DNA from: a virus
Lineage: Duplodnaviria; Caudoviricetes
Strand: one strand, 5' to 3'
Virus record (IMG/VR): IMGVR_UViG_3300034414_000011
Location: 1 to 59,697 of that record
Length of the DNA: 59,697 bases
The translations under genes were made by a program, and so were the position numbers. Below the pieces are notes generated by a model. It was not told the DNA's origin and searched no databases. It worked only from the letters and a program-made list of their open reading frames with translations. Positions 1,076 through 58,746 of this stretch are shown piece after piece (the stretch's first letter is position 1; each line of letters starts with the position of its first letter).

Positions 1076-1103
1076 TTGATTCTCTCTTTCAACTATGTAG
1101 AAT
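1076..1103 (+). promoter_or_regulatory. Sigma70-like promoter upstream of the DIP1984-like gene
   Basis: TTGATT, 16 nt, TAGAAT with AT-rich upstream region. Confidence 0.5.
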
Positions 1104-1138
1104 GGCGTCAACAACAAGGTTGAAGGTCGGAGGGACCA

Positions 1139-1648
1139 ATGAAGATTATCGAGGGAATGAAGAAGATCAAGGATCTCCAGCGGAAGGCAGAAGACTTGAG
1201 AGGGAAGATCGGCGCTCATAGTGCTGACCTGGACTTCGAGACTCCTCTGTACGAGAACCAGAAACTCCAGGTTGCCGAATGGCTCCAGGCGCACAGTGAC
1301 ATCATGAAAGAGATCCTGCGTCTCCGCATCGCCATCCAGAAGACGAATCTCCTCACCGATGTGACGATCACCATTTGCGACAAGCCGGTGACGAAGAGCA
1401 TTGCCGAGTGGATTCATCGCCGGAGAGACCTGGCGCAGTCTGATTATTCTGCCTGGGCGAAGCTGACTGACCGGGGCTTGAAGGAAGGCACCATCACTCA
1501 GTCAACCGGCCAGCTCAAGGAAGTGAAGATCCGCCGCTATTACGACCCGCTTGCCAGGGACCAGAAGCTCGACGAGTACCGGAGTGAACCTCACCTTATC
1601 GACGCGACTCTGGAGGTTGTTAACGCTGTGACAGACCTTATCGAGTAG
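1139..1648 (+). CDS. DIP1984/DUF6847-like alpha-helical protein
   Basis: GGAGG RBS; MKIIEG..., IQKTN..T, SIAEWI.RR and terminal ID..LEVVNAVTDLIE resemble the DIP1984 family pattern (recognition by eye). Confidence 0.6.
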   Translation: MKIIEGMKKIKDLQRKAEDLRGKIGAHSADLDFETPLYENQKLQVAEWLQAHSDIMKEILRLRIAIQKTNLLTDVTITICDKPVTKSIAEWIHRRRDLAQSDYSAWAKLTDRGLKEGTITQSTGQLKEVKIRRYYDPLARDQKLDEYRSEPHLIDATLEVVNAVTDLIE

Positions 1649-1680
1649 AACTTGCAAGGGACTACTTGTTAAGGCTGGAC

Positions 1681-2021
1681 GAATAGCCGACGCGCAGAGA
1701 TACAAAACCGGACGAAAAAGGGCGCTATCGCAAGCGTTATTGCGAACTCAGACTAGAGAAGCTCATGGCGAGCAACTGACTCTTAATCAGTGTGTACGGT
1801 TCGATTCCGTCTCATTCCAAATAGACTCCACACCGCGAGTCTGTTTCAAGGGCGCAAGGCTCAAGAGATCAAGGCATCAAGTCTCAATCTGAGTAAGGAA
1901 GCAAGTAGGCAAGGCCAAAGGGTGCAACGCGGACGTTAGTGCCGCGAATGACCTGGGACAAGTTTATGTTTCCCTTTTTATAACCGGAACTTTCCGGGCT
2001 TCCTGTTCGGGCGGCTAATTC
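1681..2021 (+). ncRNA. Candidate ~340-nt structured ncRNA with embedded tRNA-like domain and CAAG repeat array
   Basis: Nested pairings 1681-1689/2012-2021, AAAAAGGG 1715-1722/CCCTTTTT 1972-1979, ACTCAGA 1746-1752/TCTGAGT 1888-1894; local hairpins 1728-1745, 1819-1846, 1928-1946, 1984-1997; no convincing ORF. Confidence 0.7.
1752..1819 (+). pseudogene. Degenerate tRNA-Lys(CTT)-like element
   Basis: D arm GCTC/GAGC, anticodon arm ACTGA-CTCTTAA-TCAGT, T loop TTCGATT, ends in CCA; acceptor stem reduced to about 3 bp. Confidence 0.7.
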
Positions 2022-2043: not shown

Positions 2044-2577
2044 ATGATAGGTGAGAAATTCGGGAAATGGACGGTCGTAGCGAGAGAGCCGAACCGCAAA
2101 TATGGGCAGGGCTCTCACCACAGCGCATGGCGGGTACGGTGCGAATGTGGTGAGGAAGAAATATTGCTCGGTCAGTCGCTACGCTCCGGGAGGTCTTTTG
2201 CCTGCCGGTTGTGCAGGCGGGCAGGGAACGGACAAAAGCCGTTTGGTTCTGACCGCAAGGCGTGGGAAGAACTCGGCAGAGTCAGGGATTCAAAAGGTCT
2301 CGCAAGAGGCGATATAAAGTCGAGATCGGTGAAATGGCTCATGGAGAGCCAAGACCGGAAAGGCTTGCTGGTACAGATAAAGGCCATGGCCGGGGAATAC
2401 CGGGAACACATGAGGGAGAAATGCCCACCCGATGACTACCCGCCCTGCATGGGCTGTTCTGATCTGACAGTGGCTTTTTGTGACGACTCCGGCCTGGAGT
2501 GCCGGGAATTTCATTCGTATTGCTGTAACTACAAAAAGGAGGGACGAGAGGATGTTTGTAACGAAGAAACGGCATGA
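2044..2577 (+). CDS. Hypothetical protein with an N-terminal Cys motif typical of HNH/AP2 homing-endonuclease N-termini
   Basis: GEKFGKWTV...WRVRCECG...LRSG.S..C motif; Cys-rich C-terminus; no HNH core seen. Confidence 0.55.
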   Translation: MIGEKFGKWTVVAREPNRKYGQGSHHSAWRVRCECGEEEILLGQSLRSGRSFACRLCRRAGNGQKPFGSDRKAWEELGRVRDSKGLARGDIKSRSVKWLMESQDRKGLLVQIKAMAGEYREHMREKCPPDDYPPCMGCSDLTVAFCDDSGLECREFHSYCCNYKKEGREDVCNEETA

Positions 2578-3016
2578 CGCCATAGTGAGCAACTTGTGGG
2601 AAGAAATTTTTTGTCTGCAAAAAAGCATCGAAAAGCTCAAGGGCAGTCGGGTTGAAATCGTGACCTGTACTGACTGCGGCTGTATGGTCGAAAAGACGAA
2701 AGCCAGAGAGCTTGAGCCTACTATCATGAAACATGGGCTGAGACCCGCATATCTACCGAGCTTTATAGAGCACAAAGAATACACCGTCATTCCGCACTTT
2801 ATCTGTTGGGGTTGCGACAAGGCCAGGAAAGAAGCGGTAGAGGTGAAAGGGTTGGCGGAAGACCTGCTCGAAGCCGCTGACGCACTGTTCGATTCCCTCG
2901 ACAAAGAAGGTTGCAAAACCCTTTGCGATGATCCGTGTAACCCTGCTTGCGATGCCTGCCAGGCACCAAGGCCGACTGAGGCAGGTGTAACCGGTAAACC
3001 GAATGTCCCAGGTTAA
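2552..3016 (+). CDS. Hypothetical Cys-rich protein
   Basis: Purine-rich RBS before ATG 2552; several CxxC pairs. Confidence 0.55.
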   Translation: MFVTKKRHDAIVSNLWEEIFCLQKSIEKLKGSRVEIVTCTDCGCMVEKTKARELEPTIMKHGLRPAYLPSFIEHKEYTVIPHFICWGCDKARKEAVEVKGLAEDLLEAADALFDSLDKEGCKTLCDDPCNPACDACQAPRPTEAGVTGKPNVPG

Positions 3017-6631: not shown

Positions 6632-8407
6632 ATGACGGTACGGAGAAATATGTCAGAACTGTACGATCAGCTTGAAGGGAAATCCGAGGAAGAGTTGCTT
6701 GATCTTCTGGCGCACCTGCGCTTGACCGAGGATTTCCCGTATTTCTCGGAACGGATACTCAAGGTCCAGACAATGAAGGGCACCATTGTTCCCTTCGCCC
6801 TCAACGCCCCTCAAGTCCTGCTACACCGTATCATCGAAGAACTTATCAAGCCGCATCGCCTGGTCAGACTCGTCATCCTCAAGGCCCGGCGTTTCGGCTT
6901 CTCCACCTACTTCTCCGGTCGTTTCTACCAGAGAACGTCCCGCGTCAAGAACAGGTACGCGGTCCAGGTCACGCATGAGCCGGAAGCGACCGACACTCTG
7001 TTCAAGATGATAAAGCGTTTCTATAACTTCTCTCCCAAGGATGAACGCCCGGAGACGGTCTACAACAACACCCGTCTTCTGGAGTTCAACACCAAGGAGG
7101 GCATGGGTCTTAACAGTGCGATCCGGGTTGCAACAGCAGGTAAAGAGGACTTCGGTTCCGGCCAAACCATCCACTACGCTCACCTTTCCGAGACCGCCAA
7201 GTGGGATGAAGGAAACATCGAGAGCCTGTTAACTTCGATCCTCCAGTGCGTTCCTGATGAGCCCGATACTGCGGTTGTCCATGAGTCAACCGCAAAGGGT
7301 ATCGGCGGCGAGTATTACGACCGCTTTTGGGGTGCCAGGTTTCGCATCTGGATCAGCAAGCTGGACGAAGACGGGCAACCGGTTATCACAACCGAGATCA
7401 ACGCCAACGCTCCGGCAGACAATATCTATACCTCGATCTTTTTCCCCTGGTTCGTTTTCCCTGACTACTCCATGCCGGTACCGCATGACTTCGAGTTAAC
7501 GCCGGACGAGGAAAAGATCAAGGAGAAATACGGTCTCAGTGACGAGCAGATGGCATGGCGGCGCTGGATCATTGCCAACAAATGTAACGGCAAAGAGGAC
7601 ACCTTCAATCAGGAGTACCCGGCTTGCCCGGAGCATGCCTTCCTTGGCTCCGGTCGTCCGGTCTTCGATAATGCCAAGCTCCTTGCTTTGAAAGACACAC
7701 TCCCTGATCCAGTGGCGAGGTACGAGTGCCTTATCTCAAGCTATCAGTGGCTCGCCAATGAAAATGGCCGGCTGGTGGTCTACGAAGAGCCAAAGCCTAC
7801 CGGCGCTTACATTATCTCCGCCGACGTTGCCGAAGGTCTCAAGGATGGTGACTTTTCCTCCGCCGATGTCATTGACCATCGTACCGGGAAACAGGTCGCG
7901 CAATGGCATGGCAAGATCGACCCTGACGCTTTTGCGCTGGTCCTGATAGCCCTTGGCAAGCGGTACAACTACGCATGGATCGCGCCGGAGAGAAACAACC
8001 ACGGTCTCATGGTCGTAACGGTCCTGGTCAACGAGAACTATCCACAGGTCTATTCGGAGATGGTGCCGGAGCCCCCAGGCAAACCGCGCAAGAGATTCGG
8101 GTGGGTAACGTCGAACGCCACCAGACCGCTTATCATCGACAACCTGATTAAAGAGGTCCGGGAAGACTCGCATGGTATCAGTTGTGCCCAAACCATCGAA
8201 GAAATGATGAGCTTCAAGGTACAGGACAACGGCAGGATGGAGGCAGACGCCAACCGGAACGATGACCGGGTAATGAGTTTCGCCATAGGCAAGCATTTGC
8301 GGCAGACCTTGCCCTTGCCGTCAGCCTGGAGAACAAACCAGATGGCGAACAAGATCCGGGGCAGAAAGGGAAAGACGAAGATGCCGAGCCCGAAGGGGTG
8401 GACATAA
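6632..8407 (+). CDS. terL: Terminase large subunit (alternative start 6650)
   Basis: LKARRFGFST Walker A, HLSE Walker B, ESTAKG coupling motif, ADVAEG...DFS and DDRVMS nuclease acidic residues. Confidence 0.93.
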   Translation: MTVRRNMSELYDQLEGKSEEELLDLLAHLRLTEDFPYFSERILKVQTMKGTIVPFALNAPQVLLHRIIEELIKPHRLVRLVILKARRFGFSTYFSGRFYQRTSRVKNRYAVQVTHEPEATDTLFKMIKRFYNFSPKDERPETVYNNTRLLEFNTKEGMGLNSAIRVATAGKEDFGSGQTIHYAHLSETAKWDEGNIESLLTSILQCVPDEPDTAVVHESTAKGIGGEYYDRFWGARFRIWISKLDEDGQPVITTEINANAPADNIYTSIFFPWFVFPDYSMPVPHDFELTPDEEKIKEKYGLSDEQMAWRRWIIANKCNGKEDTFNQEYPACPEHAFLGSGRPVFDNAKLLALKDTLPDPVARYECLISSYQWLANENGRLVVYEEPKPTGAYIISADVAEGLKDGDFSSADVIDHRTGKQVAQWHGKIDPDAFALVLIALGKRYNYAWIAPERNNHGLMVVTVLVNENYPQVYSEMVPEPPGKPRKRFGWVTSNATRPLIIDNLIKEVREDSHGISCAQTIEEMMSFKVQDNGRMEADANRNDDRVMSFAIGKHLRQTLPLPSAWRTNQMANKIRGRKGKTKMPSPKGWT

Positions 8408-9506: not shown

Positions 9507-11588
9507 ATGATGCAGGCAATACCAACTCCAACGCCAGGTGTAAGTAATTTCGGACTTGTCAAGGTCAGGAATAATGACGCATTGGCGGCAGAAGGGCTTT
9601 CCAGGGTACAGCCTGCCTCGCCTCCGCCTATCATCTCTTCACTCTCCGGGTATGTGAGCCGGTGCTGGCAAAACGCCAAGACCGCCAAACAGCCGATTGA
9701 GCAACAGATGATGCAGAGTTTGCGTCAACGGTACGGGATTTATGAAGCTGACAAATTGGCGGCGATCAGGGAGATGGGTGGGTCAGAAATCTTTGCCCTC
9801 CTGACACTGACGAAGTGCCGGGCCGCAGAGTCGTGGATTCACGACACGCTCAGTCCGGCGCAGGAGAGACCGTGGGCAATCGTCCCGACCCCTGTTTCCG
9901 AACTGCCTCCCGATGTGGAGCAGGACATCCGGCAGAAGACCGAGGCAACCTTCCGGGATGTGGTGGATCAGATTAACGCCATGCAAGGGTTTATTGATGT
10001 TAACGCGCTTCGTGGCGAGATCGAAACCTACCTCAAGGGCATGACCGATGAGACCATGCGCGAGCTACAGGAAGAAGCCGAGCTTCGCATGGAACGCATG
10101 TCCAACAAGATTGACGACCAGCTTACCGAGGGCGGTTGGCATGATGCCTTTCAAGAGTTCGTCTTCGATGTAGTGACTCTCAAGGCCGGGATACTGAAAG
10201 GCCCGGTAGTCAGGCGCAAGAAGGTCCAGAAGTGGGTACAGGGGTCGAAGTTCTGGAGCATGGGCACCGCTGATGAGTTTGTGCTGGAGTTCGACCGGGT
10301 TTCCCCCTTCGATATTTACCCGCAACCAGGCTCCCGGAGTGTCGATGACGGATATATCATCGAGCGCCACATGCTCAACAGGTCGGATCTTGTCGCTATG
10401 TTGGGTGTGCCAGGCTACTCCGAAGAGGCGATACGGACGGTCCTCGATGACTACGAGAACGGCAAGATCACCGAGTTTCTGCCGATAGACTCCGAACGCT
10501 ACTACATGGAGCATGGCGAAACCACCACGATCTACCAGACCGGCAAGATCGAGGCTCTTGAGTTTTGGGGAAGCGTCCAGGGCAGGCTCCTGATTGAGTG
10601 GGGCTTGACCGATGGTATTGACCCTCAACTTGAGTACGAAGTTAACGTGTGGCAAGTGGGCTCCCATGTTATCCGGGCGATCATCAACCCTGACAAGCTC
10701 GGTCGCAAGCCCTACAGCGTGACCTCATTCGAGAAGATACCCGGCTGTTTTTGGGGTATGGGCATACCGGAATTAATGTCCGACTCCCAGGACGCATGCA
10801 ACGCCGTAGCCCGCGCAATCGTGAACAATGCCGGTATCGCTTCCGGTCCCTTGGTCGAAATGAACATGGACCGTTGCGACGACAATACAAAGCTCTGGCC
10901 TTGGCGCGTATTTCAATCGACCAATCAGCAAATGCAGGAGGCTCCGGCTGTCAGGTTCTACCAGCCGACCATCGTTACCGGCCCGCTGATGGAGGTCTTT
11001 GAATACTTCGCCCGTATGGCAGACGAGCAAACAGGGGTTCCCCGCTGGAGCCATGGCAACACGAATATCGGCGGAGCCGGGGACACATCGTCCGGCCTTT
11101 CCATGCTGATGACGTATGCCGCTCGCGGGATCAAAAAGGTCATTTCCCATCTTGACGTTGCGGTGTCTGGCGTAATCACCAGAACCTACGACTACAACAT
11201 GATTTATGACCGCGATCAAAGCATCAAGGGTGACGCCAAGGTTGTTGCTCGCGGGGCAAGCGCCCTGGTGGCAAGGGAACAGAAGATGCTCCGTGTCAAC
11301 GAGTTCCTCCGGACTACCAACAACCCGGTTGATTATCAGATCATGGGACCGGACTTCCGGGCGAAGCTACTCAGGACTGCGGCCAAGAATCTTGAGATTG
11401 ACGACTATGAGGATATTGGTGGCAACGAGCTTATCAAGATCCTGGAGCAAGTCAGGGCACAGACGGCACAACTCGGATGGCAAGGTGTTACCCCGCAAGA
11501 GAAGGGGCAAAAGACTGATTCTGCCGGTAATCCTGCCGGTGGCACAGACCATAACGCCTTCCAGAACCAGCCAGGGGTAAGAACGTGA
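9507..11588 (+). CDS. Portal protein (podovirus type)
   Basis: 693 aa following terL; PFDIYP, GCFWGMGIPELM.D.Q..CN, ADEQTG, GDTSSGLSML portal motifs. Confidence 0.88.
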   Translation: MMQAIPTPTPGVSNFGLVKVRNNDALAAEGLSRVQPASPPPIISSLSGYVSRCWQNAKTAKQPIEQQMMQSLRQRYGIYEADKLAAIREMGGSEIFALLTLTKCRAAESWIHDTLSPAQERPWAIVPTPVSELPPDVEQDIRQKTEATFRDVVDQINAMQGFIDVNALRGEIETYLKGMTDETMRELQEEAELRMERMSNKIDDQLTEGGWHDAFQEFVFDVVTLKAGILKGPVVRRKKVQKWVQGSKFWSMGTADEFVLEFDRVSPFDIYPQPGSRSVDDGYIIERHMLNRSDLVAMLGVPGYSEEAIRTVLDDYENGKITEFLPIDSERYYMEHGETTTIYQTGKIEALEFWGSVQGRLLIEWGLTDGIDPQLEYEVNVWQVGSHVIRAIINPDKLGRKPYSVTSFEKIPGCFWGMGIPELMSDSQDACNAVARAIVNNAGIASGPLVEMNMDRCDDNTKLWPWRVFQSTNQQMQEAPAVRFYQPTIVTGPLMEVFEYFARMADEQTGVPRWSHGNTNIGGAGDTSSGLSMLMTYAARGIKKVISHLDVAVSGVITRTYDYNMIYDRDQSIKGDAKVVARGASALVAREQKMLRVNEFLRTTNNPVDYQIMGPDFRAKLLRTAAKNLEIDDYEDIGGNELIKILEQVRAQTAQLGWQGVTPQEKGQKTDSAGNPAGGTDHNAFQNQPGVRT

Positions 11589-27395: not shown

Positions 27396-30300
27396 ATGGG
27401 TCAGTTTGATGGATTGTATGATGATATTCTGAACGGTGGAACTCGTGGCGGTGCCATCCCTGATAATGCCGCCAGGTCATTTACCGGGGAAGCCCTGGCC
27501 GGTGTCAGGGCTGGTGTAGCCGTAGAGCTTCCGAAAATGATAGGTCAGGCAATGAAAGCCATCTCCGATCCTGGGGGTGGCTTTCATGACGCAGGGAACA
27601 ATCTTGTTGAGGGGGCAGAAGAGCGATACAACGAAGATCCTGCCACCTATGCCAAGTCTGCATACGGCAACGACAAGTCAGATTACAATCCTCTTAAATA
27701 TACTTATGACGCCGCGAGCATGCTCCCCCCTTCCCTTGCTGGAGCCGCCGCCGCTATTCCGGTTGCCGCCGCTGGAGCCCCTGCCGCCGCTGTGATGGGT
27801 GCCGGTATGATTGCGTCTGGTGGACTGTTCGGCGCTTCACAGTACCAGGATACCTACGAGCGAGGTATTGAAGCAGGACTGTCAGAGGAAGATGCCAAGT
27901 CTGCCGCGTTAAAGACCGCCAGTATCGAAGGCGGCGGTGAGGCAATCGCCAGCGCAATTCCTCTAAAGTTCCTCGCAAAACCATTCACTAAAATAGCCGG
28001 AAAGATGGTGGGGCAGGCCGCAGAGCGCGGTATAGTGTCCTCCATTCTCGGAGTCAAGCCCTTTGTCAAGGAGCTAGGCAAACAAACCCTCAAGGAACTC
28101 CCTGTCGAAATGGGCACAGAGTTCTATCAAGGAGCGCACCAGGCGCAAGTTGAGAAAGACGCCGGTATTCGTCCTGACGCCGACTGGTACCAGGAAGGCT
28201 TGCAGGGTGCCATGGCCGCTTCGATGATGACCGCTGGACACATGGCCGGAGCCGGAGCCGGTGGTGCAATTAAGCACCGTATGACCATGAATGCCCTGAC
28301 CAATCCTGAAACCAATCCTGACGCACGACTCCGCGCACTGGAAGAGATTGGGCAAAGAATTGACGATGTTGACCCCGACAAAGGGAAGTTCTGGCGTCTC
28401 AACGGCGTTAACGCGATCAGAAACGGTCAGTCGATCCCGCTTGACGATTCCTTTCTTTCCGACCTGACTCAACGAGCTATCCCTGTCGAGGATGTTAACT
28501 TGCTTGAGTGGAACAGGGGGAACAACTATCCGGCTGTTGGCGGTGTTGCTGGACCGCCTGCTGGTCCTGCTGGTCCTGGAACCGGCTTTACCATGCGCGA
28601 CCCTGGTTACATTGATGCTGAATTTGACGAGGTAGGGCCGCAAGGGCAAGTACCCGGCGAACAGCGTATGGCGATTCCTTTCCTGCCGAATGAGCAAGCC
28701 GGTCTCAATGATTGGTTTGGTCAACGTCCGAATGGCCCGCAGAACCTTAACTCGGAAGATCAGTCCAAGCTCGATGATATGGTGCGAGCAAGATACGGGT
28801 TAACTCCAGGACTTGAAGCCGCCCACGATGCCGCATCTTCCCCGCTCAACGATCACGCAGATCCTACCGAATCTCAGATCCAGGCAGGGAACTACCGCAA
28901 GGGTCACGTTAACATCCAAGGTCTCGACATTTCTATTGAGAATCCGGCTGGCTCCGTTCGTTCCGGTAAGGACGCTGACGGCAAGGCATGGTCTACCGAT
29001 ATTCAGCATCACTACGGCTATATCAAGGGAACGGTCGGAAAGGACAAAGACCACATCGACACTTTTATCGGCAACAAGCCGGAAAGTGACAGGGTGTTCG
29101 TGGTAGATCAGATCGACCCGAAAACCGGCAAGTTCGATGAAGCTAAAGTCATGATTGGGTTTGACAGTATAGAAGAGGCTCTCGACGGGTATTTGAAGAA
29201 TTATGATGAATCCGGGCCGAGTAGGGTAGGTGCCGTAACCCCTGTTAATATGGCAGAGTTCAAGGGGTGGCTCAAAAATGGTAACACCAAAAAGACGTTT
29301 GCCGGGTCAGATATTGGGAAGCAGGTTCACGCTAAAGCATCAAGCAACTCCCCTTCTCAAGAGACACTTTCTGATGGTGTCCCAGGAAACGCCGAACCTT
29401 CTACCAATGGCGGCGTAGGTCCAGCCACAATCTCTTCTCAACACAATGCCTTCGTCAATGGGCCAAGTGGTAGCGCCCCATCTGTGCCCGGTAACATGCT
29501 CCCGCTGGGTAGTAATCTCAAGGTTGTCGGGGGAGTTGTTCAATCCATTCCCGTCGATGTGATGGACGACCTCTCTATTGGTAAGAGGTCTGCCAAGAAC
29601 TCTCTCCATGACAAGCCTATGCTCGAATCTCTGCCTTCTGACACCATCAACAACGGTGCTAATGAGCCTATAAGCGGTGTTGTGCCTGGGGAAAAACCTG
29701 ATGTGACCACCAGTGCTGGGCCTACCCATGACGATACCTCCAAAAAGAAAGATGAACCGAAGGTATCAGAACGTAATCAAGAAGTAAATACGGTTCAACC
29801 AACAAAGTTGAACAAGGGCGATACCAATGACGTAACCACCGAAGAGCTTACCGAGAGCGGCATCAAATACGATGTTAACTCTGCCGGAGAGATCATTGTT
29901 ATGAAGGACGGCAAGAATACCGCCCAACGTGACAAGAACACCGGGAAATGGAGAGTCTACGAAGGGAGCCTCAAGAAAGAAGATCTGGTCGTTGACGATG
30001 TTTCCATGCGCGAGGCCATGGACGAGTTGATCGGCATGCGCGAGGATGACAACCACGATAAGTCCAGAACCCTTGACGAAACTGGACGCGCCACGGATGG
30101 CAAGCCCATCATGCCAGGTGATGCCTTTACTACATCATCCGGCAGAAAAACAACAGCATACCCCAAACAGAAGGGCGAAAAATATGCGTCTCAATGGCTG
30201 ATTGACAATGCCGTGGCAGAGTCAGAGTCAAGGGGTGACGATTGGAACGCTAAAATATTTGGCAATGTGAAACCTTTAAAGAGTGGAGAACTTACCCCGG

Positions 30301-33300
30301 CTGACCGTGATTCTATGTTGATGTACCTGTTCGGTGAACAGCCTCCGGTTGTCAAGAAAGCACTGAAACCGCTTGCGCCGAAACCGGCAGAGGCTCCAAA
30401 AGAACCCGAGTTAACCCTGGAAGACGCCAAGAAGTCGAAGTATTGGCCGGAGTCTTTGAAACGTGCCAGAGAAGCCGCAGTTACTCTTGGCAAGGTCAAG
30501 GCTGTCACTATCGCCCCGGAGACCAAAGCAGACAAGATGAAGCCGAAGGGTGATGTCTGGACCCCGGAAGAGTTTACTGCCCTCATGGAAGCGAAGGCGG
30601 CTGACGCGAAGCTGAAACCGTACACCGTCATGGAGCCGCAAGGGATGTCCACCGAAGAGTATGAGATATGGGCGGAAAACCATGCTCTCGACACCGTTAA
30701 GGACCGGCTTGCCCATGAGAAGGCGAAGATCGAGAAGCAGGACACCCGCCTTGGCACCCTGGACAAGATCAACACACCAGAGCTTGCCATGGAGTTTGCA
30801 CAGAAACTCGCTGATGTGGTTGAAAGGGGCGAGTCCCTGGACAAGATCAAAGTCCTCCAGATGGTAGCAGAGCTTTACGGTACCACTGTGAAGGAGATCC
30901 GCGAGAAGCTGGAAGCGCAGGAGGCTGATTGGCGGCATGTGGAAGAGGCAATGGAGTATGCCGTGGTGAAGTATGCCAAGGCTATCGTTGCCGGTAAGGG
31001 CACAGTGGATCAGAAGTTAACACGCCTCCAGGCTCTCTATGACGCGCAACCGAACCTTGCGAAGAGGGACACCACCACCAAGGCCGGTCAACAGTTCTCA
31101 ACCCCTGCTCCGCTCGCCTTCCTCATGGGTGAAGCTATCGGTCTCACCAAGCAGGACGCGGTATATGAACCGACTGCCGGTAATGGCATGCTGGTGATGG
31201 GTGCCTCTCCGTCAAAAACCATCGTCAATGAATACGACGCGGTGCGCCGGGCAAACCTGTCGGATCAGGGTTTTAACAAGGTCTACGGCAACGACATTCT
31301 TGACCCGTCGATCCCGGCTGGAGTCTCCGACAAGTCACAGGATGTTGTTGTTGCCAACCCTCCTTTTGGCAAGGCAGATATGGAGATGGTGTTCGATGAT
31401 ATGCCTCTCGACAAAAAGGAACATATCATCGTTGCCGATGCCCTGGAGAAGATGAGGGACAATGGACGGGCCGCGTTTATTATCGGTGGGCACAACTTCA
31501 AGAAGGGCACCATGGGCGAAGCCGATTGGAACTTCCTTAATTGGCTTTACAAGCATTATAACGTGCGGCACAATATAGACATAAACGGAGACGTTTACCG
31601 CAGGATGGGAACCACCTACCCGATCCGCATGATCGTGATTGATGGCAGGAAGGCAACCCCTGACGAGAACTACTCCGTACAGGACAAGGAAGTTAACGCC
31701 GACAAGGAAGCTCTTGCCATGTCGGAAGCAAACTCTTTCGAGGATGTCAAAAAGATACTGGAGGAAAAAGGCTATGTTGACCGACGAGGGCAGGTACCTT
31801 CTGGAAATGGCAATAGCGGATTGGCAGAAGAAGCCGAAGAAGGACAGGATCAACCTAACGGAGCATCTGATAGAGTACCAGTGGGCACCGGACACGACAC
31901 TGATAAGCGAGACAGCGGCACCGGAAAAAATAGCGGACGAGATAGTGACGGCGCTTCAACCGGACGTACTGGAAAAGATAAGCGAGGTAGCGGAAAGTCT
32001 CCAGGATCTTCCAGAGAGTCAGTGGATGGAGGAAGCAAATCTCGAAGCGTTACTGAGTTAACGGGAGACATCAAGCAGGACATCAACAATGCCCTTTCCC
32101 ATGTGGATGCCGCTATCAAGGCGGCGCTCAAGGGTATTACCGATCCCAACAAATTAAGCATGGGCGTCACGATTGACGAGAAAGCCTATGCTGAGATCAA
32201 GAAGCATCTCGCCGCCACTCTCGAAGAACTCAAAAAAGCCTTCAAGGATTTCAACGAACTTATTTCCAAATTCGCAGAAACGGTAATGGAGCGGTATGGA
32301 GAGGCGATTATCCCGTATGCCACCAAGTTCTATGGTGAAGTGCATGCGGAGCATCTCGCCAACGAATCCAAGGCAAACGAGCCCACGGTAAAGGACGAGC
32401 CCATGGAAGGAGGCAATAGCCTCCAGGCACCGTACCGGCCAAGATCAAAAGGGAAAAGCTCTGACAAGCTGATCCCGCGCAACATGGAAGCGTTTATCAA
32501 GGCGGCTCTTGACGACCTTGAGGCTCGCCATGGCGACATTGACGAGTATGTGGCGTCGAAGCTCCAGTATGGTTCCAAGAAAGACCTCCACAAAGCCCTC
32601 TTTGCCGACCAGATCGACACCGTGGCAATGGCGATTGACAACATCGACCGCGGCCTTGGCTTTATCAATGGTTCACAGACTGGAGCAGGGAAAGGCCGGA
32701 CTGTCGCGGCAATCATGTGGTATGCCAAAACGAAGGGCTTGAAGTCCATCTTCTTCACTCAACAGCCAAAACTCTTCTCCGATATGTACCGCGACTTGAA
32801 GGGTATAGGGCACCCGGAGATGAAACCCTACATTATCCATGGACTGTCGGAAGCCCATATTTACGACGAAGACAACAATATTATCCACCGGGCGTTCCCT
32901 CCTGGCGTGACCTCCCGTTCGGCTGAGTATGAACGTGTTGCCAGCAATGTCGAGAAGGAGCTTGCTGACTATGATACGGTTTTTATTCCGTACTCCCAGG
33001 TTAACACGGCCAACACTCAACGCGACTTACTGAGGGCTCTGGCTCCGAACAGTATTGTTATCCTCGACGAATCCCACAAGGCCGCAGGCGACGGGTCCAA
33101 TACCGGGCTTTTCGTGCAGGAACTCTTGTCTCTTTCTCCGGGTGTAATGTACTCTTCGGCAACATTCGCCAAGCGACCATCGTCAATGCCGGTGTATTTC
33201 CGAACCAACCTGGGACAAACCGGGATGAGCATGGAAGAGCTTATTGCTTCCGTTGAGGCTGGAGGTGTACCGCTCCAGCAGATCATATCTGCACAACTCG

Positions 33301-36300
33301 CCAGGTCCGGTCAGTACATCAGGTTCGAGATGGACGTTAACCAGATCGAATCGAACACCATGACGTTCAGCGAAGACACCAAGGCAAAGGACACCATAGC
33401 GTCAGATGGCATCACCTCGGTTATGCGCGATCTGGTTGATTTTTCCAACGAGTTCTCGGGGTGGGTGGAGACGATCAAGGCGCAGGCGAACATTGGCAAG
33501 ACCAAGGGAAACCGGGTTAACGTGACCACAAGTAGCTTCAGCTCGGTAGCCCACAATACGGTTGCACAGCTCCTTCTTGGCTTAAAGGTTGAGATGGTGG
33601 CGGCAAAAGCTGTCGAGACCTTAAAGGCTGACAAGAAGGCGCTCATAAACCTGTCCAATACCATGTCGAGCTTTATTGAAGACATTGCCGCGATGGAGGG
33701 GGTAAAGAGCGGTGAAGAACTTGACATTTCCTTTGTTGATGCGCTCCGCAGAACTCTCAGGAACCAGCTTACCTACACCGTAAAACAACCCGGACAGAGA
33801 CGGGGCGAGAAAGTCAGGATCGACCCGAACGAACTCACCGATCATTTGCGGGCAAAATACAATCGCATCATGCGGAAGATAGACGTAACCGATGTTAACA
33901 TACCGGCTTCCCCTATTGACATGCTACGCTACCGCATCGAGCAGGCTGGTTATAATGTTGCCGAGATAACCGGTCGCAACAGCCGACTTGATTACAGCGG
34001 AGATGGCGCACCCGTATATCGTCCGATGTCCAAGAAGGACAAGAACCGGAACGAGATCGTCAACGGTTTCAACAAGGGCACTATAGATTGTGTGATTTTC
34101 AATGCGGCTGGAGCAACCGGCCTATCACTCCATGCCAGTCAGGATTTCGCGGACAGACGTATCCGTAAGATGCTGATAGCACAGGCAGACCTCAATATTG
34201 ACACGGTTTTGCAGGCAATGGGGCGTATCTTTAGGACCGGACAGGTAGAGAAGCCGGAATACGAGTTTACTCTTTCCGCCTTGCCCGGAGAGAAGAGACC
34301 TGCCGCAATACTCCAGAAGAAATTGGCTTCCATGAACGCCAATACCTCCGCCGATGCCAAGAGCGCATACACCAACGAAGAAGTGCCTGATATTCTCAAT
34401 ATCTACGGTGACAAGGTGGCGGCTGAGTATCTGATAGATACCCCCGATGTTAACAGCATGTTGGGTGGCCTGGTCAGTCGCAATGATGCCGGGGAAGTCC
34501 ATGTTCCAGAAGACCTCATGAGGAAGATGACAGGTAAAATGGCCCTTCTCCCGGTAGCTCTTCAAGAGAAGATATACAAGGAAATCATCGAGATATACAA
34601 CGCCGAGATTGATTATCTTAACAAGACCGGCCAGAACAGACTCATTGCTTCGGTCCACGATTACCAGGCAAAGACTCTGGACAAGTCGGTTATCTATGAC
34701 GGTGACGAGAACAGCCCGAATCCATTTACGAGACCTGCGTATCTGGAGAAGGTTCTTACGAAGGTGACGAAGAAGCCACACACCATTGAAGAAGTGAAAG
34801 AGATGGCCGAGAAGGAACTTGCCGGACGGTCTCAGCGAGAGTATATCAAGGAAACCTCCAAGGACATGATGGACCGTACCAAGGAATACCTTGATGCGCT
34901 CAACAGGGATTTGGAAGAAGCCAGAACCAACAACGGGCCAACCGCCGCGATAGAGCGGAAAATCTCTACGATCCGGGAAAACGTCTCAACCTACGAAGAG
35001 CTATGTAGCAACTTCGTTGTGGGCGACCCTTACACGGTCATAACCTCCAGCGACGGAGATTCTGTGCTCGGCGTATTCCTGGGAGTTAACTTCTCGAAAA
35101 CCGCAGAAGGCACAAACCCGATGGTCCCGTCTAAAATAGGGTTCAAGTTTGCCGTTGCCAGTGGCGAGAAGACTATCACCATGCCGATGTCCAAGCATGA
35201 GCTTCTAAGAAAGGCCGAAGACGAGCGACTGAGCAAGCTGGACGAATGGGACGAAATGCAAAAGGCTACCACGGAAGTAAGGCACATGGTAACGGGCAAC
35301 CTCCTTACCGGGTACCGCTCTTTTGTGTCGGCTGGAAAGCGCCCCGAAGTAGTGATGTATTCGTCTAATGAGGGTGGCACACGCCCAGGTATCCAGGTTC
35401 CGAAGTCGATGGAGAGAGAACTTGAGTCTCTTTTCCGGTTTACCTCTACCGGATCAAAGACGGCCCTTGAGTACCTGGCGCACATCAAGAAGGTTAACGC
35501 GAACAATGCCCACGTCTCCATGACGACCGGAGCACCGGTAACAGTCATGTGGTCAGGCAGTATGAACAAATGGCGGGTCAACGTCGAGGGATCGCCGCAG
35601 AACAACCAGGCAGTCATGGACCGCAGGCTCATTGAAGCTACAGACGCCGGGCGATTTGACCAGAGAAATGGTGACTGGTCCGCTGTTGTGAGCGAAGAGA
35701 ACCTGCCAAGGATGATGCAGGCTCTTGAGTCTGCCTTCTCTGCCAAGTTCAACGTCCCGCGTGACTTCAAAAACAAGGCCGGTGAAGGTAATGTTGACCT
35801 CTCTATCCACCAGGCGCCCGGCATTGAGACCCGGAAGATCAATCAGTCCAATCTCGCCAGGATCAAGGCCGCGATTGAGCGTATCCTTCCGCAAGGAGTT
35901 ATGCTGGAGCTGGTTGATAAGCTGGAGTACGACCTTGACCAAGTTGCAACCGGGGCAAAAGCCCACGGTCTCGACCTTGAAAAACTGAGGAAGAAGGGCA
36001 AGCTCAAGGTTGTAGCGAAAGGATCGCACAGAACGGTAAAACTCACAACCGGGGAGTTAACTTCGCTCATCAAGCTGTCGATGTCGAAGGCAACAGAAGC
36101 CACCGGCTACCATGAGATCCTGCATGCCGCCGAAGCTCTTGGAGTCATCAACGCCGAAGACTTGAAGATCCTTGAGCGGGCTTTCCCGGAGAAGAACGGC
36201 AAAAGCTCCAAGGAGATGAGAGCCGATGCCTTCGGTGATTTCGTAACAGGCAACATGAAACAGGGGACTCCATCGGCGGCGAGACTCATTTTCCAGAAAA

Positions 36301-57438: not shown

Positions 57439-58746
57439 TTAACAATGTGCCGTGATCTTTGATCTGATGTCTTGAGAAACGCCTTTCCAGATAACCATTT
57501 CCTCTACTTCGTGCCGTGGAAAGCCTGCCGCTAGTAGCTTTGCCCCTTTGATTGATGCCCTTGGGGAGATAATGATTTCCTGTTTTGTATCCCATGCCGC
57601 TTTCCTGTACCTCTGTACCGTCTTTGCCCATTCGGTATTACCAGCAAGAAATACCTCCAGTTCTTCGTCGTAATCAAAGTCGATAACAGCGAAGCGGTCC
57701 AGCGTGGCTCCGTCCAGCTTGTTTCGTCCTACATACTGCCGATCTGCCCCGCGTCCATAGGTGTTCATTGCCATGACACATACAAAGTCGGCGTTAACTT
57801 CAACCATGCCATCAGGGAAGGGCGCGAAGCCGTTGGAAGTCATAGCGTTCATGATGGTTATGGTGTTCGCGTTCCCTGCGTCCGCTTCGTCCATGAGGAA
57901 AACGCCGCCGTGTTCGATAGCGTCCCGCAACTGTGTCCTGTGGTAATTCCCCGTTGCGTCGATAAAGCCGATAAGATCAGTTTTTGTCGTCTGCTGACCC
58001 ACCGATATACAGTAGAAGTTTAAGCCGTTCGCCTCTGCCGCCGCGTGTACTGCATGCGTCTTGCCGCTCCCTGCCGGTCCAACAAGGGAGAAGTTTTCCC
58101 TTGCCATTACCAGCTTCACCAGCTTTTCAAACAGGTAGTGTTGCCGCCCCATGTCCTTGACTTCGCCGGTAGGTAGTTCAACCTTGATAACCTTCGCCGC
58201 CTTCTGTATCTCTTCCTTGATGATGTCCTCAATCAAATCGGGGTCCGGTAAAAGGTTAAGGTATGGAGAAATCATCATCGCCATCATCTGACCGAAAGCA
58301 TCTGCTCCAGCACTTCCCGGCGTAGGCATTGCCACTGGACCCGCGTTAACTTCTGCCCATGTACCGTTCATGAGGTATTCCGCTATCTGGTCCCGGCTCC
58401 ACTTCGTTCTCAAGTCCGTTGTGGGCCTGCCTTCTGCCTTGGCTTTCTCGGCTCCCCGCTTCCTCAACTCCTGCATGGACAGTTCTTTGATTTCTTCTGC
58501 GCTCATTTCTTCCCCCTCGCTGTTATCGTTCGGTTCCGTGTTAACTTCTGGAATTACCGTAAACTCTCTGATTGCCCTGTCTTTCAACTCCGCGTCATTG
58601 CCGTAAAACTTCGTGCCGTCGCTGTTGCCAAACTTCGATGGTTTCAGTCCGACAGAACGGAGCCAGAACTTTTCGTGTTCTGTTTCAGCATCGAATACCC
58701 AATAGACCTTGCCGGTCTTTCGCTTCCTGTGCTCTGTGATCTTCAT
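57439..58746 (-). CDS. MoxR/CbbQ/CobS-like AAA+ ATPase
   Basis: GPAGSGKT, FLMDEAD, MNTYG.G...YVGRN.LD.ATLDRF, SPRA. Confidence 0.88.
   Translation of the reverse strand: MKITEHRKRKTGKVYWVFDAETEHEKFWLRSVGLKPSKFGNSDGTKFYGNDAELKDRAIREFTVIPEVNTEPNDNSEGEEMSAEEIKELSMQELRKRGAEKAKAEGRPTTDLRTKWSRDQIAEYLMNGTWAEVNAGPVAMPTPGSAGADAFGQMMAMMISPYLNLLPDPDLIEDIIKEEIQKAAKVIKVELPTGEVKDMGRQHYLFEKLVKLVMARENFSLVGPAGSGKTHAVHAAAEANGLNFYCISVGQQTTKTDLIGFIDATGNYHRTQLRDAIEHGGVFLMDEADAGNANTITIMNAMTSNGFAPFPDGMVEVNADFVCVMAMNTYGRGADRQYVGRNKLDGATLDRFAVIDFDYDEELEVFLAGNTEWAKTVQRYRKAAWDTKQEIIISPRASIKGAKLLAAGFPRHEVEEMVIWKGVSQDIRSKITAHC

Follow-up and report, generated by a model that had tools for sequence, protein, structure and literature searches.

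Large, intricately folded bacterial and phage RNAs are rare, and most of them, such as GOLLD and ROOL, still have no function and no known partner. GOLLD and ROOL are encoded by phages and prophages, often near tRNA islands, contain many pseudoknots, and in GOLLD tRNAs sometimes lie inside the RNA, in the linker; no protein partner is known for them, and many GOLLD members exceed 800 nt (10.1101/2024.12.08.627333). ROOL is roughly 580 nt long. In other RNA-protein particles, such as tmRNA-SmpB and Y RNA (YrlA)-Rsr, a structured RNA with a tRNA-like module works with one dedicated small protein; YrlA and rsr are neighbors, and some occur in phages. TRAP, HutP, and CsrA with CsrB/RsmZ read many copies of a short motif at regular spacing on single-stranded RNA through an oligomer or several dimers. 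HutP sites are UAG triplets with a 7-nt period in two sets, and CsrA is a dimer titrated by multi-site RNAs. Type III toxin-antitoxin systems such as ToxIN place a small protein gene next to a repeat-containing RNA and are carried on mobile elements. The DIP1984/DUF6847 proteins (∼150–170 aa) possess a solved structure (PDB code 3KDQ), but our literature searches found no function in print, and the family has often been mislabeled "septicolysin" in plasmid annotations.

We analyzed the 59,697-nt genome of an uncultivated tailed phage (IMG/VR record IMGVR_UViG_3300034414_000011, positions 1–59,697, hereafter the window), which is complete and carries a previously uncatalogued ∼335-nt RNA that accompanies one small protein gene in every set of loci examined. 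A first-pass annotation had described a promoter, a DIP1984-like gene, and a ∼340-nt structured RNA with a tRNA-like domain and a periodic CAAG array. This observation is confirmed, and the finding is larger than described, although two of the seven helices proposed are wrong. The features of the module are as follows.

1076–1103 (+), promoter-like site TTGATT-16-TAGAAT, weak and putative
1139–1648 (+), gene for a 169-aa protein with a predicted DIP1984 fold (DUF6847-like), the proposed partner of the RNA
1684–2017 (+), the whole structured noncoding RNA (class 1), bounded by the two strands of helix P1
1684–1700 (+), P1 5' strand: P1a at 1684–1689, P1b at 1691–1697 plus 1699–1700, with A1690 and A1698 unpaired
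1701–1707 (+), conserved A-rich junction (consensus GAGAUAAAAAC spans 1697–1707)
1708–1722 (+), 5' strands of P2 (1708–1711) and P3 (1715–1722), which both pair into the loop of P5 and form a pseudoknot
1723–1745 (+), H-type pseudoknot: S1 is CGCU 1723–1726/AGCG 1733–1736, S2 is UCGCA 1728–1732/UGCGA 1741–1745
1756–1813 (+), tRNA-like domain with D, anticodon (CUU), and T arms and only a 3-bp acceptor
1818–1845 (+), hairpin AAAUAGACUC/GAGUCUGUUU in the variable region after the tRNA-like domain, specific to this window
1848–1920 (+), single-stranded AAG track: five AAG (1848–1881), one degenerate unit (AAU 1886–1888), four AAG (1895–1920); proposed protein-binding platform
1928–1946 (+), hairpin Px (CGCGG/CCGCG), variable in sequence but conserved in place
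1946–1964 (+), conserved GAAUG, then the P5 5' strand: P5a 1952–1957, bulge AC, P5b 1960–1964
1972–1987 (+), 3' strands of P3 (1972–1979) and P2 (1984–1987), both inside the P5 loop
1988–1998 (+), P5 3' strand: P5b 1988–1992 and P5a 1993–1998
2001–2017 (+), P1 3' strand: P1b 2001–2009 and P1a 2012–2017, preceded by the conserved GGCUU

The region downstream of the gene does not code for protein. Positions 1649–2043 hold only short ORFs (49–50 aa on the plus strand and 71 aa on the minus strand), and in 44 homologous RNAs the longest plus-strand ORF has a median of 28 aa, whereas a stop-free frame in the conserved 3' 175 nt occurs in only 2–6 of 44. Rfam 15 matches only the embedded tRNA-like domain. 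A covariance-model scan of 1000–2200 at E up to 10 lists only tRNA and one chance plastid UTR hit, and 20 homologous loci give only tRNA. In contrast to GOLLD and ROOL, whose models are not matched, the RNA is ∼335 nt long, carries an unpaired AAG heptad track, and has a strictly linked protein gene; the comparison with GOLLD made in the first-pass annotation holds only for setting (phage, tRNA association), not for membership. In contrast to tmRNA, whose tRNA-like domain is formed by the two RNA ends and which also carries a tag reading frame, the tRNA-like module is internal, ARAGORN reports no tmRNA, and Rfam finds neither tmRNA nor Y RNA. Compared with both tmRNA-SmpB and YrlA-Rsr, the module is dispensable and the partner protein is unrelated.

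The fold of the RNA is supported by covariation rather than by thermodynamics. Single-sequence folding is unremarkable (minimum free energy −120 kcal/mol, z = −0.86, 19 of 100 shuffles fold as well; z = −0.58 on the minus strand). However, in 44 full-length homologues 77.6% of cells are paired vs 62.0 ± 0.6% in shuffled alignments (0/500), the covariation score is 0.406 vs 0.165, and slid registers reach 51.4% or less. The 15-bp closing helix P1, found with RNAalifold, is supported in both parts (P1a 85% vs 49%, P1b 87% vs 72%, 0/1000 each; 85.1 and 88.4% paired over the 44 sequences). The same holds for P2 (86% vs 68%, 0/1000; 86.0% paired) and for both parts of P5 (P5a 96% vs 75%, P5b 92% vs 87.5%, 0/1000), of which one helix is 92.5% paired with changes on both sides in 7 of 11 pairs. 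The P3 duplex scores −7.38 kcal/mol for cognate strands vs −4.41 for non-cognate ones (0/2000, 33/37), S2 scores −6.57 vs −3.08 (0/2000, 35/35), and Px scores −7.82 vs −4.04 (0/1000, 39/43), whereas S1 rests on inspection by eye. The columns of the A-rich junction are nearly invariant.

Of the helices proposed in the first-pass annotation, four hold and are supported by covariation: the outer GAATAGCCG/CGGCTAATTC is P1a, AAAAAGGG/CCCTTTTT is P3, TCGCAA/TTGCGA is pseudoknot stem S2, and CGCGG/CCGCG is Px. By contrast, ACTCAGA/TCTGAGT does not hold (cognate −2.43 vs non-cognate −2.07 kcal/mol, 85/1000 permutations as good, 16/36). Neither does CCGGAA/TTCCGG (53% paired vs 56% non-cognate, 991/1000), whose bases belong to P2 and P5. 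The pairing AAATAGACTC/GAGTCTGTTT exists in the window but lies in a variable region. Homologues carry other sequences in place of the hairpin at 1818–1845. A hairpin taken for a terminator, in a stretch that a motif scan also lists as terminator-like, is really the P5 3' strand plus P2. The promoter-like site matches 9 of 12 positions, with 2 sites found in 800–2300 against 0.8 ± 0.8 expected from shuffles, and is not evidence by itself. We further rejected a mini-hairpin CCY-NNNN-RGG at 2002–2011 (724/1000 permutations as good), which was replaced by P1b, and a conserved hairpin in the class 1 mid-track spacer (478/1000).

The tRNA-like domain scores 33.5 bits against the tRNA model (RF00005; gathering score 29, model positions 5–66). 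However, only three acceptor pairs align, instead of the seven of a chargeable tRNA, and ARAGORN does not call it, so that in this window the element is tRNA-like and not a tRNA gene. Among the 44 homologues, 17 carry an ARAGORN-callable tRNA at this position and 28 keep the T-arm motif; the T stem is 88% paired and the anticodon stem 75.8%. The scaffold might thus be a cassette that expresses, protects, or delivers the embedded tRNA, for example by guiding RNase P/Z cleavage, with the protein as a chaperone. The related class 2 RNAs (see below) sit inside tRNA islands, as in locus L124 (L numbers denote individual loci of the set examined). However, 16/44 RNAs have no T-arm motif, the domain of the window lacks an acceptor stem, anticodons are unconstrained (5 of 17 have A at position 34), and the conserved parts are the scaffold and the AAG track, not the tRNA. 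We therefore regard this reading as very unlikely.

The AAG track begins units at 1848, 1856, 1863, 1871, and 1879 and again at 1895, 1903, 1911, and 1918. These are the only two chains of four or more AAG at 7/8-nt spacing on either strand of the whole window. In 38 arrays we find a median of 9 AAG at a spacing of 7 nt (90 cases) or 8 nt (77 cases), with the logo Y-A-A-G-G(0.57)-N-U. A Shine-Dalgarno mimicry of AAGG was dropped because class 2 units read AAGAC or ACGAC. The arrangement recalls the targets of TRAP, HutP, and CsrA, but the motif is AAG, the track is embedded in a large closed scaffold, and the protein fold is unrelated, with no hit to those proteins in Pfam or PDB sequence searches.

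The type III toxin-antitoxin pair suggested in the first-pass annotation fails the defining features of these systems. Like them, the module is a compact, mobile pair of one small protein and one repeat-bearing RNA with no fixed neighbors. In type III systems, however, the antitoxin RNA consists of tandem repeats of about 34–36 nt, lies upstream of the toxin gene, and is paired with a ToxN/AbiQ-type endoribonuclease. Here, Tandem Repeats Finder returns 0 arrays in 1600–2100, the units are 7–8 nt long, and the RNA follows the gene in 41 of 44 loci. Pfam gives no nuclease-type hit, and PADLOC returns 0 hits for the window protein; one PADLOC hit for L124 (AbiEii, E 0.0044) is taken as chance. 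The module moreover sits in phage genomes among tRNA genes, and we consider the toxin-antitoxin or abortive-infection reading very improbable. Nothing in these data bears on the decoy or anti-defense role that had also been proposed.

The gene upstream of the RNA encodes a protein at the edge of the DUF6847 family. It reaches the gathering cut-off of PF20935 only marginally (27.2 bits vs 27, residues 11–167 over profile 2–141; the homologue in L005 scores 34.8 bits) and remains below the cut-off of the DIP1984 family NF038048 (34 bits vs 70). The only other Pfam hit is a sub-threshold match to kleA_kleC. A PDB search by sequence returned only UvsY at E 0.37 with the single protein and no hit with the profile, PHROGs gives no family, and a protein atlas lists only "hypothetical protein" clusters, mostly viral. 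However, the AlphaFold2 model (pLDDT 94.8) matches the fold of 3KDQ in Foldseek (3kdq_C, E 1.6e-4, probability 1.00, TM 0.57/0.62) at about 18% identity, whereas the next hit has E 0.19.

The protein is also predicted to self-associate. With four copies folded, the score is 0.79 against a best control of 0.01; that mark was reached by 20 of 30 proteins solved as pairs of one chain and by 1 of 23 solved as single chains. The runs agree in at least 99% of contacts, and partner pLDDT is at least 88. This result used our own alignment and four copies, unlike the calibration, and may also reflect memory of the solved relative 3KDQ. The contact lists of the two copies are nearly the same residues, which we read as a two-fold dimer. 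A ring oligomer like TRAP is not supported, because the model gives a two-fold contact only, and how 9–10 sites would be filled is conjecture.

Gene and RNA co-occur in both search directions. Starting from the protein, a single-sequence nhmmer query finds the RNA in 18/23 viral loci, and a profile of its 3' domain finds it in 23/23; the RNA is also present in 8/8 close loci from MAGs. Starting from the RNA, a pattern scan gave 50 loci, of which 27 are genuine and all 27 have the gene; the other 23 are chance matches in coding DNA without an RNA profile hit, 21 of them near-identical copies of one coding sequence. Because these loci come from searches seeded with the protein or with a strict RNA motif, RNAs that lack the gene but diverge in that motif would have been missed. 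All 44 of 44 pairs lie on the same strand; 41 RNAs are downstream (median gap 17 nt, 26 within 60 nt; 35 nt after the stop codon in the window) and 3 are immediately upstream, whereas in L043 and L044 the RNA is 1–1.5 kb from the gene. Among 2007 neighboring ORFs in 132 loci, only the gene itself is shared (123 loci), and the next real family occurs in 5 loci or fewer. In GenBank phages, a blastn search with the RNA matches only a tRNA-like 40 nt, and tblastn with the class 1 and class 2 proteins finds 0 of 50,697 records; by these searches no cultured phage carries the module.

The linkage extends to a distant protein clade, about 28% identical to the window protein, which carries a second RNA class with the same layout and AAG heptads. 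The set comprises 44 class 1 and 32 class 2 RNAs, the latter with a putative mid-track pseudoknot. Chains of four or more AAG at 7/8-nt spacing lie downstream in 44/71 loci of this clade, that is, 66 chains in 60.6 kb against 6 in 532 kb of background (about 97-fold enrichment). Many of the remaining loci have degenerate A[AC]G arrays, whereas 4 of the 71 metagenome loci (L114, L154, L155, and L190) show no array by eye. Protein clade and RNA class co-segregate (17/17 and 37/54, with 0 crossed). In contrast, 21 classical DUF6847 loci in Bacillota have no such chain, except for a perfect (GTAAGCA)x11 microsatellite in L089 that lies behind an opposite-strand gene and is unrelated. RNA binding, if it occurs, is therefore not a family-wide property.

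These patterns also bear on whether the RNA works without the protein, alone or as an RNA multimer like GOLLD and ROOL, with the gene as a merely co-inherited neighbor in phage tRNA islands. In favor of this view, tRNAs are embedded in or flank the RNA here as well. However, co-occurrence is complete in every set examined and persists across two RNA classes while all other neighbors change, and a conserved unpaired triplet track is hard to explain without a reader. We consider this alternative unlikely.

Equally unlikely, in our view, is that the RNA is an autoregulatory 3' UTR, a cis element to which the protein binds only to control the stability or translation of its own mRNA, without a trans-acting particle. 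The RNA starts 1–20 nt after the stop codon in most loci, always on the same strand, and no promoter or terminator was found between gene and RNA in the window. However, a ∼335-nt doubly pseudoknotted scaffold with a tRNA insert is far more than feedback binding needs, and the RNA lies upstream of the gene in L068, L078, L080, and L003 and 0.8–1.5 kb away in L044 and L043. In one metatranscriptome run, a 334-nt contig matches 1683–1752 and 1879–2009 with a different middle and covers the RNA only. This hint of expression is weak, because contigs cannot prove a discrete transcript; runs with small word shares are contigs only, and stretches of 1100–2100 without cover in them carry no meaning. 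Two DNA sequencing runs may be the source sample.

Taken together, window 1139–2017 is a self-contained two-part module. Our analysis establishes that the RNA is a closed, doubly pseudoknotted scaffold with a conserved H-type pseudoknot and hairpin Px, that it carries two elements of variable content (a tRNA or tRNA-like insert and a single-stranded track of 9–10 AAG triplets), and that gene and RNA are inherited together across two deeply diverged clades. What we infer, with slightly better than even confidence, is that both are made from one transcript and that the protein, as two-fold symmetric dimers, binds the AAG triplets with several dimers per RNA, in the way known proteins read spaced triplet or GGA repeats. 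The result would be a defined ribonucleoprotein whose scaffold displays the tRNA(-like) domain. The earlier interpretation is thus partly supported: a functional protein-RNA pair has strong genetic support, self-association is supported by a model only, and binding and biological role remain inference. That the particle acts on host or phage tRNA or translation biology is speculative.

In contrast to GOLLD and ROOL, this RNA offers an obvious handle, a single, strictly linked protein gene and a simple repeated motif that can be mutated, which makes the question of its role directly testable. The two RNA classes occur in about 120 loci from sediments, wastewater, and MAGs of many phyla, and the protein family has 767 clusters at E up to 1e-3, so that the family is not a curiosity of one phage. 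tRNA or tRNA-like modules are swapped in and out of a fixed slot of a conserved scaffold, which bears on why phage tRNA islands attract ornate RNAs. The finding also offers a first functional lead for a domain-of-unknown-function family. A further-reaching reading, which we hold only tentatively, is a new kind of phage ribonucleoprotein in which four to five two-fold dimers line up on the 9–10-unit AAG heptad track of a scaffold that displays an exchangeable tRNA or tRNA mimic, and which would intervene in host tRNA, translation, or tRNA-directed defense during infection. That would give the first function, sequence-specific single-stranded RNA binding, to a branch of the DUF6847/DIP1984 family and the first protein-partnered member of the ornate RNAs found in phage tRNA islands.

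The record, of 59,697 bp, is a complete virus record with direct terminal repeats. It represents a tailed phage with a terminase (6632-8404), a portal/adaptor (9507-11585), a 3812-amino acid protein (27396-38834, +), a primase-helicase, and tRNA-Thr and tRNA-Tyr genes. Residues ∼430-650 of the 3812-amino acid protein match lysozyme, endolysin or DarB-like giant virion protein families, and a second long match at residues 1168-2424 is to a family of unknown function. An ORF at 57439-58746 (-) matches a PHROG labelled porphyrin biosynthesis (phrog_249, E 2.2e-52) and an ATPase family, and is a possible auxiliary metabolic gene. The left end (1-300) is C-rich and proline-codon-like without a convincing gene, and presumably lies within or beside the direct terminal repeat reported by IMG/VR.

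The gene and RNA described here lie 1.1-2.0 kb from the left end. An ORF of 169 amino acids (1139..1648, +) is followed by 395 nt (1649-2043) that hold only short ORFs. In this stretch, Rfam 15 gives a single hit, a tRNA at 1756-1813 (33.5 bits, model positions 5-66), which is not called by ARAGORN and in which only three acceptor pairs align. Directly after the RNA lie two overlapping cysteine-rich ORFs (2044-3016, +), and the first 59 residues of 2044..2577 match an HNH endonuclease family (phrog_374, E 4.3e-8). Folding of the single sequence is unremarkable (z -0.86, with 19 of 100 shuffles folding as well), so the case rests on comparison with homologues.

To collect homologues, we first scanned viral contigs with the protein, which gave 23 loci at 51-66% identity. 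The intergenic sequence of the window alone found the region next to the gene in 18 of the 23 by nhmmer (downstream of the gene, except upstream in the locus L003), whereas a profile of the 3′ domain found it in all 23, and only once in the window. A scan of genome contigs added 8 close loci in MAGs of many phyla, all 8 of which have the RNA. After removal of duplicates, 44 full-length RNAs of 275-438 nt were aligned (alignment A7). In window coordinates, the RNA is organized as follows.

1684-1689 / 2012-2017, helix P1a
1691-1697 plus 1699-1700 / 2001-2009, helix P1b, found by RNAalifold and followed by a nearly invariant A-rich junction (GAGAUAAAAAC)
1708-1711 / 1984-1987, helix P2
1715-1722 / 1972-1979, helix P3
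1723-1745, H-type pseudoknot
1756-1813, tRNA-like domain
1818-1845, variable hairpin
1848-1920, AAG track
1928-1946, hairpin Px, followed by the conserved GAAUG
1952-1957 plus 1960-1964 / 1988-1998, helix P5

The 3′ strands of P2 and P3 lie inside the P5 loop, so that P2/P3 and P5 form a pseudoknot. Many Px hairpins of the homologues (window equivalent 1926-1947) share the form CUC-GAA-GCG-(GNRA-like loop)-CGC-GGA-GAG, a symmetric internal loop of possible tandem G.A pairs capped by a tetraloop, which may be a tertiary-contact or protein-binding motif.

On alignment A7, the named structure has 77.6% of cells paired against 62.0 ± 0.6 in shuffles (0/500), 453 cells with a change on both sides against 163 in shuffles, and a covariation score of 0.406 against 0.165, whereas all slid registers give 51.4% or less. 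P1 is 85-88% paired, P2 86%, and P5 92.5%. An anchored count of our own on 37 sequences agrees with these values, with cognate against non-cognate pairing of 85% versus 49% for P1a, 87% versus 72% for P1b, 86% versus 68% for P2, 96% versus 75% for P5a, and 92% versus 87.5% for P5b (0/1000 permutations as good for each). Because P3, Px, and the pseudoknot stem S2 contain indels that MAFFT misaligns (55-58% paired on A7), we tested them by the duplex energy of cognate against non-cognate strands. This gave -7.38 versus -4.41 kcal/mol for P3 (0/2000, 33/37), -6.57 versus -3.08 for S2 (0/2000, 35/35), and -7.82 versus -4.04 for Px (0/1000, 39/43). Stem S1 of the pseudoknot (CGY/RCG) was seen only by eye. 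The region is not coding.

Of the seven helices proposed in the first-pass annotation, four hold, namely the outer helix, AAAAAGGG/CCCTTTTT, TCGCAA/TTGCGA, and CGCGG/CCGCG. One lies in a variable region, outside the reach of a comparative test, and two fail (ACTCAGA/TCTGAGT and CCGGAA/TTCCGG). A terminator-like site detected at 1984-1997 is the failed hairpin, whose bases belong to P2 and P5.

Between the pseudoknot and the track, 17 of 44 RNAs carry an ARAGORN-callable tRNA, 28 of 44 keep a T-arm motif, and 16 have neither. Anticodons vary widely. Five of the 17 embedded tRNAs have A at wobble position 34 (anticodons ACU, AUU, and three times AAU), and one has a two-letter anticodon reported by ARAGORN as ‘???’; these are unusual for decoding tRNAs (homologous RNAs in A7, e.g. 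those of loci L004, L007, L046, L078, and L079). The slot is therefore conserved, but its content is exchangeable, and in the window it holds a truncated, Lys(CUU)-like mimic.

The AAG track has a median of 9 exact AAG in 38 class 1 arrays (the RNA class of the window). Successive AAG are 7 nt (90 cases) or 8 nt (77 cases) apart, with the logo Y-A-A-G-G(0.57)-N-U, and no pairing partner is conserved for the track. In the window, it reads five AAG, one degenerate unit, and then four AAG, and no other such chain occurs on either strand of the 59.7-kb genome.

The 169-amino acid protein reaches Pfam DUF6847 at its threshold (27.2 versus 27) but does not reach NCBIfam DIP1984_fam (34 versus 70). 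Its AF2 model is confident (pLDDT 94.8), and the only significant structural match of the model is 3KDQ, the Corynebacterium diphtheriae protein of unknown function (E 1.6e-4, prob 1.00, TM 0.57-0.62). A profile search of 1.84 billion representative proteins found 767 clusters at E up to 1e-3, nearly all of ∼170 amino acids. When four copies were folded together, the self-association score was 0.79 (runs 0.76, 0.81, and 0.79) against a best control of 0.01, a mark that was reached by 20 of 30 proteins solved as pairs of one chain and by 1 of 23 solved as single chains. The runs agree in at least 99% of contacts, and partner pLDDT is at least 88. However, our own alignment and the use of four copies differ from the calibration of the method, and a solved relative may be remembered by it. 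The two contacting copies list nearly the same residues, which we read as a predicted 2-fold dimer.

A scan with an RNA-only pattern returned 50 loci. Of these, 27 match the RNA profile, and exactly those 27 encode the protein (nine of them are contigs already found through the protein), whereas the other 23 are chance matches in coding DNA. In all 44 RNAs, the gene is on the same strand; 41 RNAs are downstream with a median gap of 17 nt, and 3 are immediately upstream. These counts cover loci that were all found through the protein or through a strict 3′ motif. Clustering of 2007 neighboring ORFs from 132 loci found no shared family beyond the gene itself (123 loci), the next real family occurring in 5 loci or fewer. 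Searches found no cultured phage that carries the module.

Four distant homologues (27-34% identity) led us to a metagenome scan, which gave 80 loci. Chains of 4 or more exact AAG at 7/8-nt spacing lie 123-880 nt downstream on the gene strand in 44 of the 71 loci that have at least 350 nt downstream. This corresponds to 66 chains in 60.6 kb, against 6 chains in 532 kb elsewhere and on the other strand. Many of the remaining loci have degenerate A[AC]G or AUG units, whereas four of these metagenome loci (L114, L154, L155, and L190) show none. These class 2 RNAs (32 unique) keep the same order of parts: a closing helix, a GUAAA-type junction, an H-type pseudoknot, a variable insert, 4-5 heptads, a GC-rich hairpin or pseudoknot, 4 heptads, a conserved 3′ module, and YGGCUR before the closing strand. 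Their P1 strands pair at -15.1 kcal/mol cognate against -6.5 non-cognate (0/2000, 32/32), although the anchors were chosen by best energy, which biases this figure. Protein clade and RNA class never cross (17/17 class 1, 37/54 class 2 by a crude motif test, 0 mixed). One class 2 gene-RNA module (locus L124, 2287-3768) sits inside a tRNA island, with two tRNA genes upstream of the gene and three downstream of the RNA, and another locus, L014, has 17 tRNA genes after its gene.

Classical DUF6847 genes are carried by 20 of 401 Bacillota genomes, and none of the 21 loci checked has an AAG chain, apart from an unrelated microsatellite. This perfect (GTAAGCA)x11 heptamer microsatellite (locus L089, 706-778) lies ∼700 nt upstream of the gene and is separated from it by an opposite-strand ORF. 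It has the same 7-nt period and an AAG core as the track, but this is probably a coincidence.

A hint of expression comes from one metatranscriptome run (X10), which holds a 334-nt contig that matches 1683-1752 and 1879-2009 with 131 different letters in between. This is a relative's RNA, and the ends of the contig fall within ∼8 nt of the P1 ends, but contigs cannot define transcript ends, and DNA may be present in the library. In two other runs (X5 and X6), a 107-nt contig of very high depth (1121 in X5) matches only the anticodon-to-T-arm part of the tRNA-like domain (1770-1810), with a 2-letter insertion. It is most likely an abundant true tRNA of another organism and not this RNA.

No Rfam 15 family other than tRNA matches the window or 20 homologous loci. 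Full-text searches for DUF6847, DIP1984, PF20935, and 3KDQ found no functional study, but only one passing mention of DIP1984 and two unrelated 3KDQ strings; papers on ‘septicolysin’ are, judging from their listing alone, annotation mentions. For GOLLD and ROOL, we relied on 10.1101/2024.12.08.627333. A catalogue of 8,495 IMG/VR candidate structures of 29-151 nt exists (PMC10690425), in which fragments of this RNA may be listed without a name; the text that we consulted does not describe the whole RNA or its protein link.

The analysis shows a conserved, pseudoknotted RNA and its strict co-inheritance with the gene. Alternative explanations that we considered are an autoregulatory UTR, a protein-independent RNA, a tRNA cassette, and a type III-like toxin–antitoxin pair. 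Co-transcription of gene and RNA, as well as binding of protein dimers to the AAG triplets, are inferred, the latter by analogy with TRAP, HutP, and CsrA/CsrB. More speculatively, the module may act on tRNA or translation biology.
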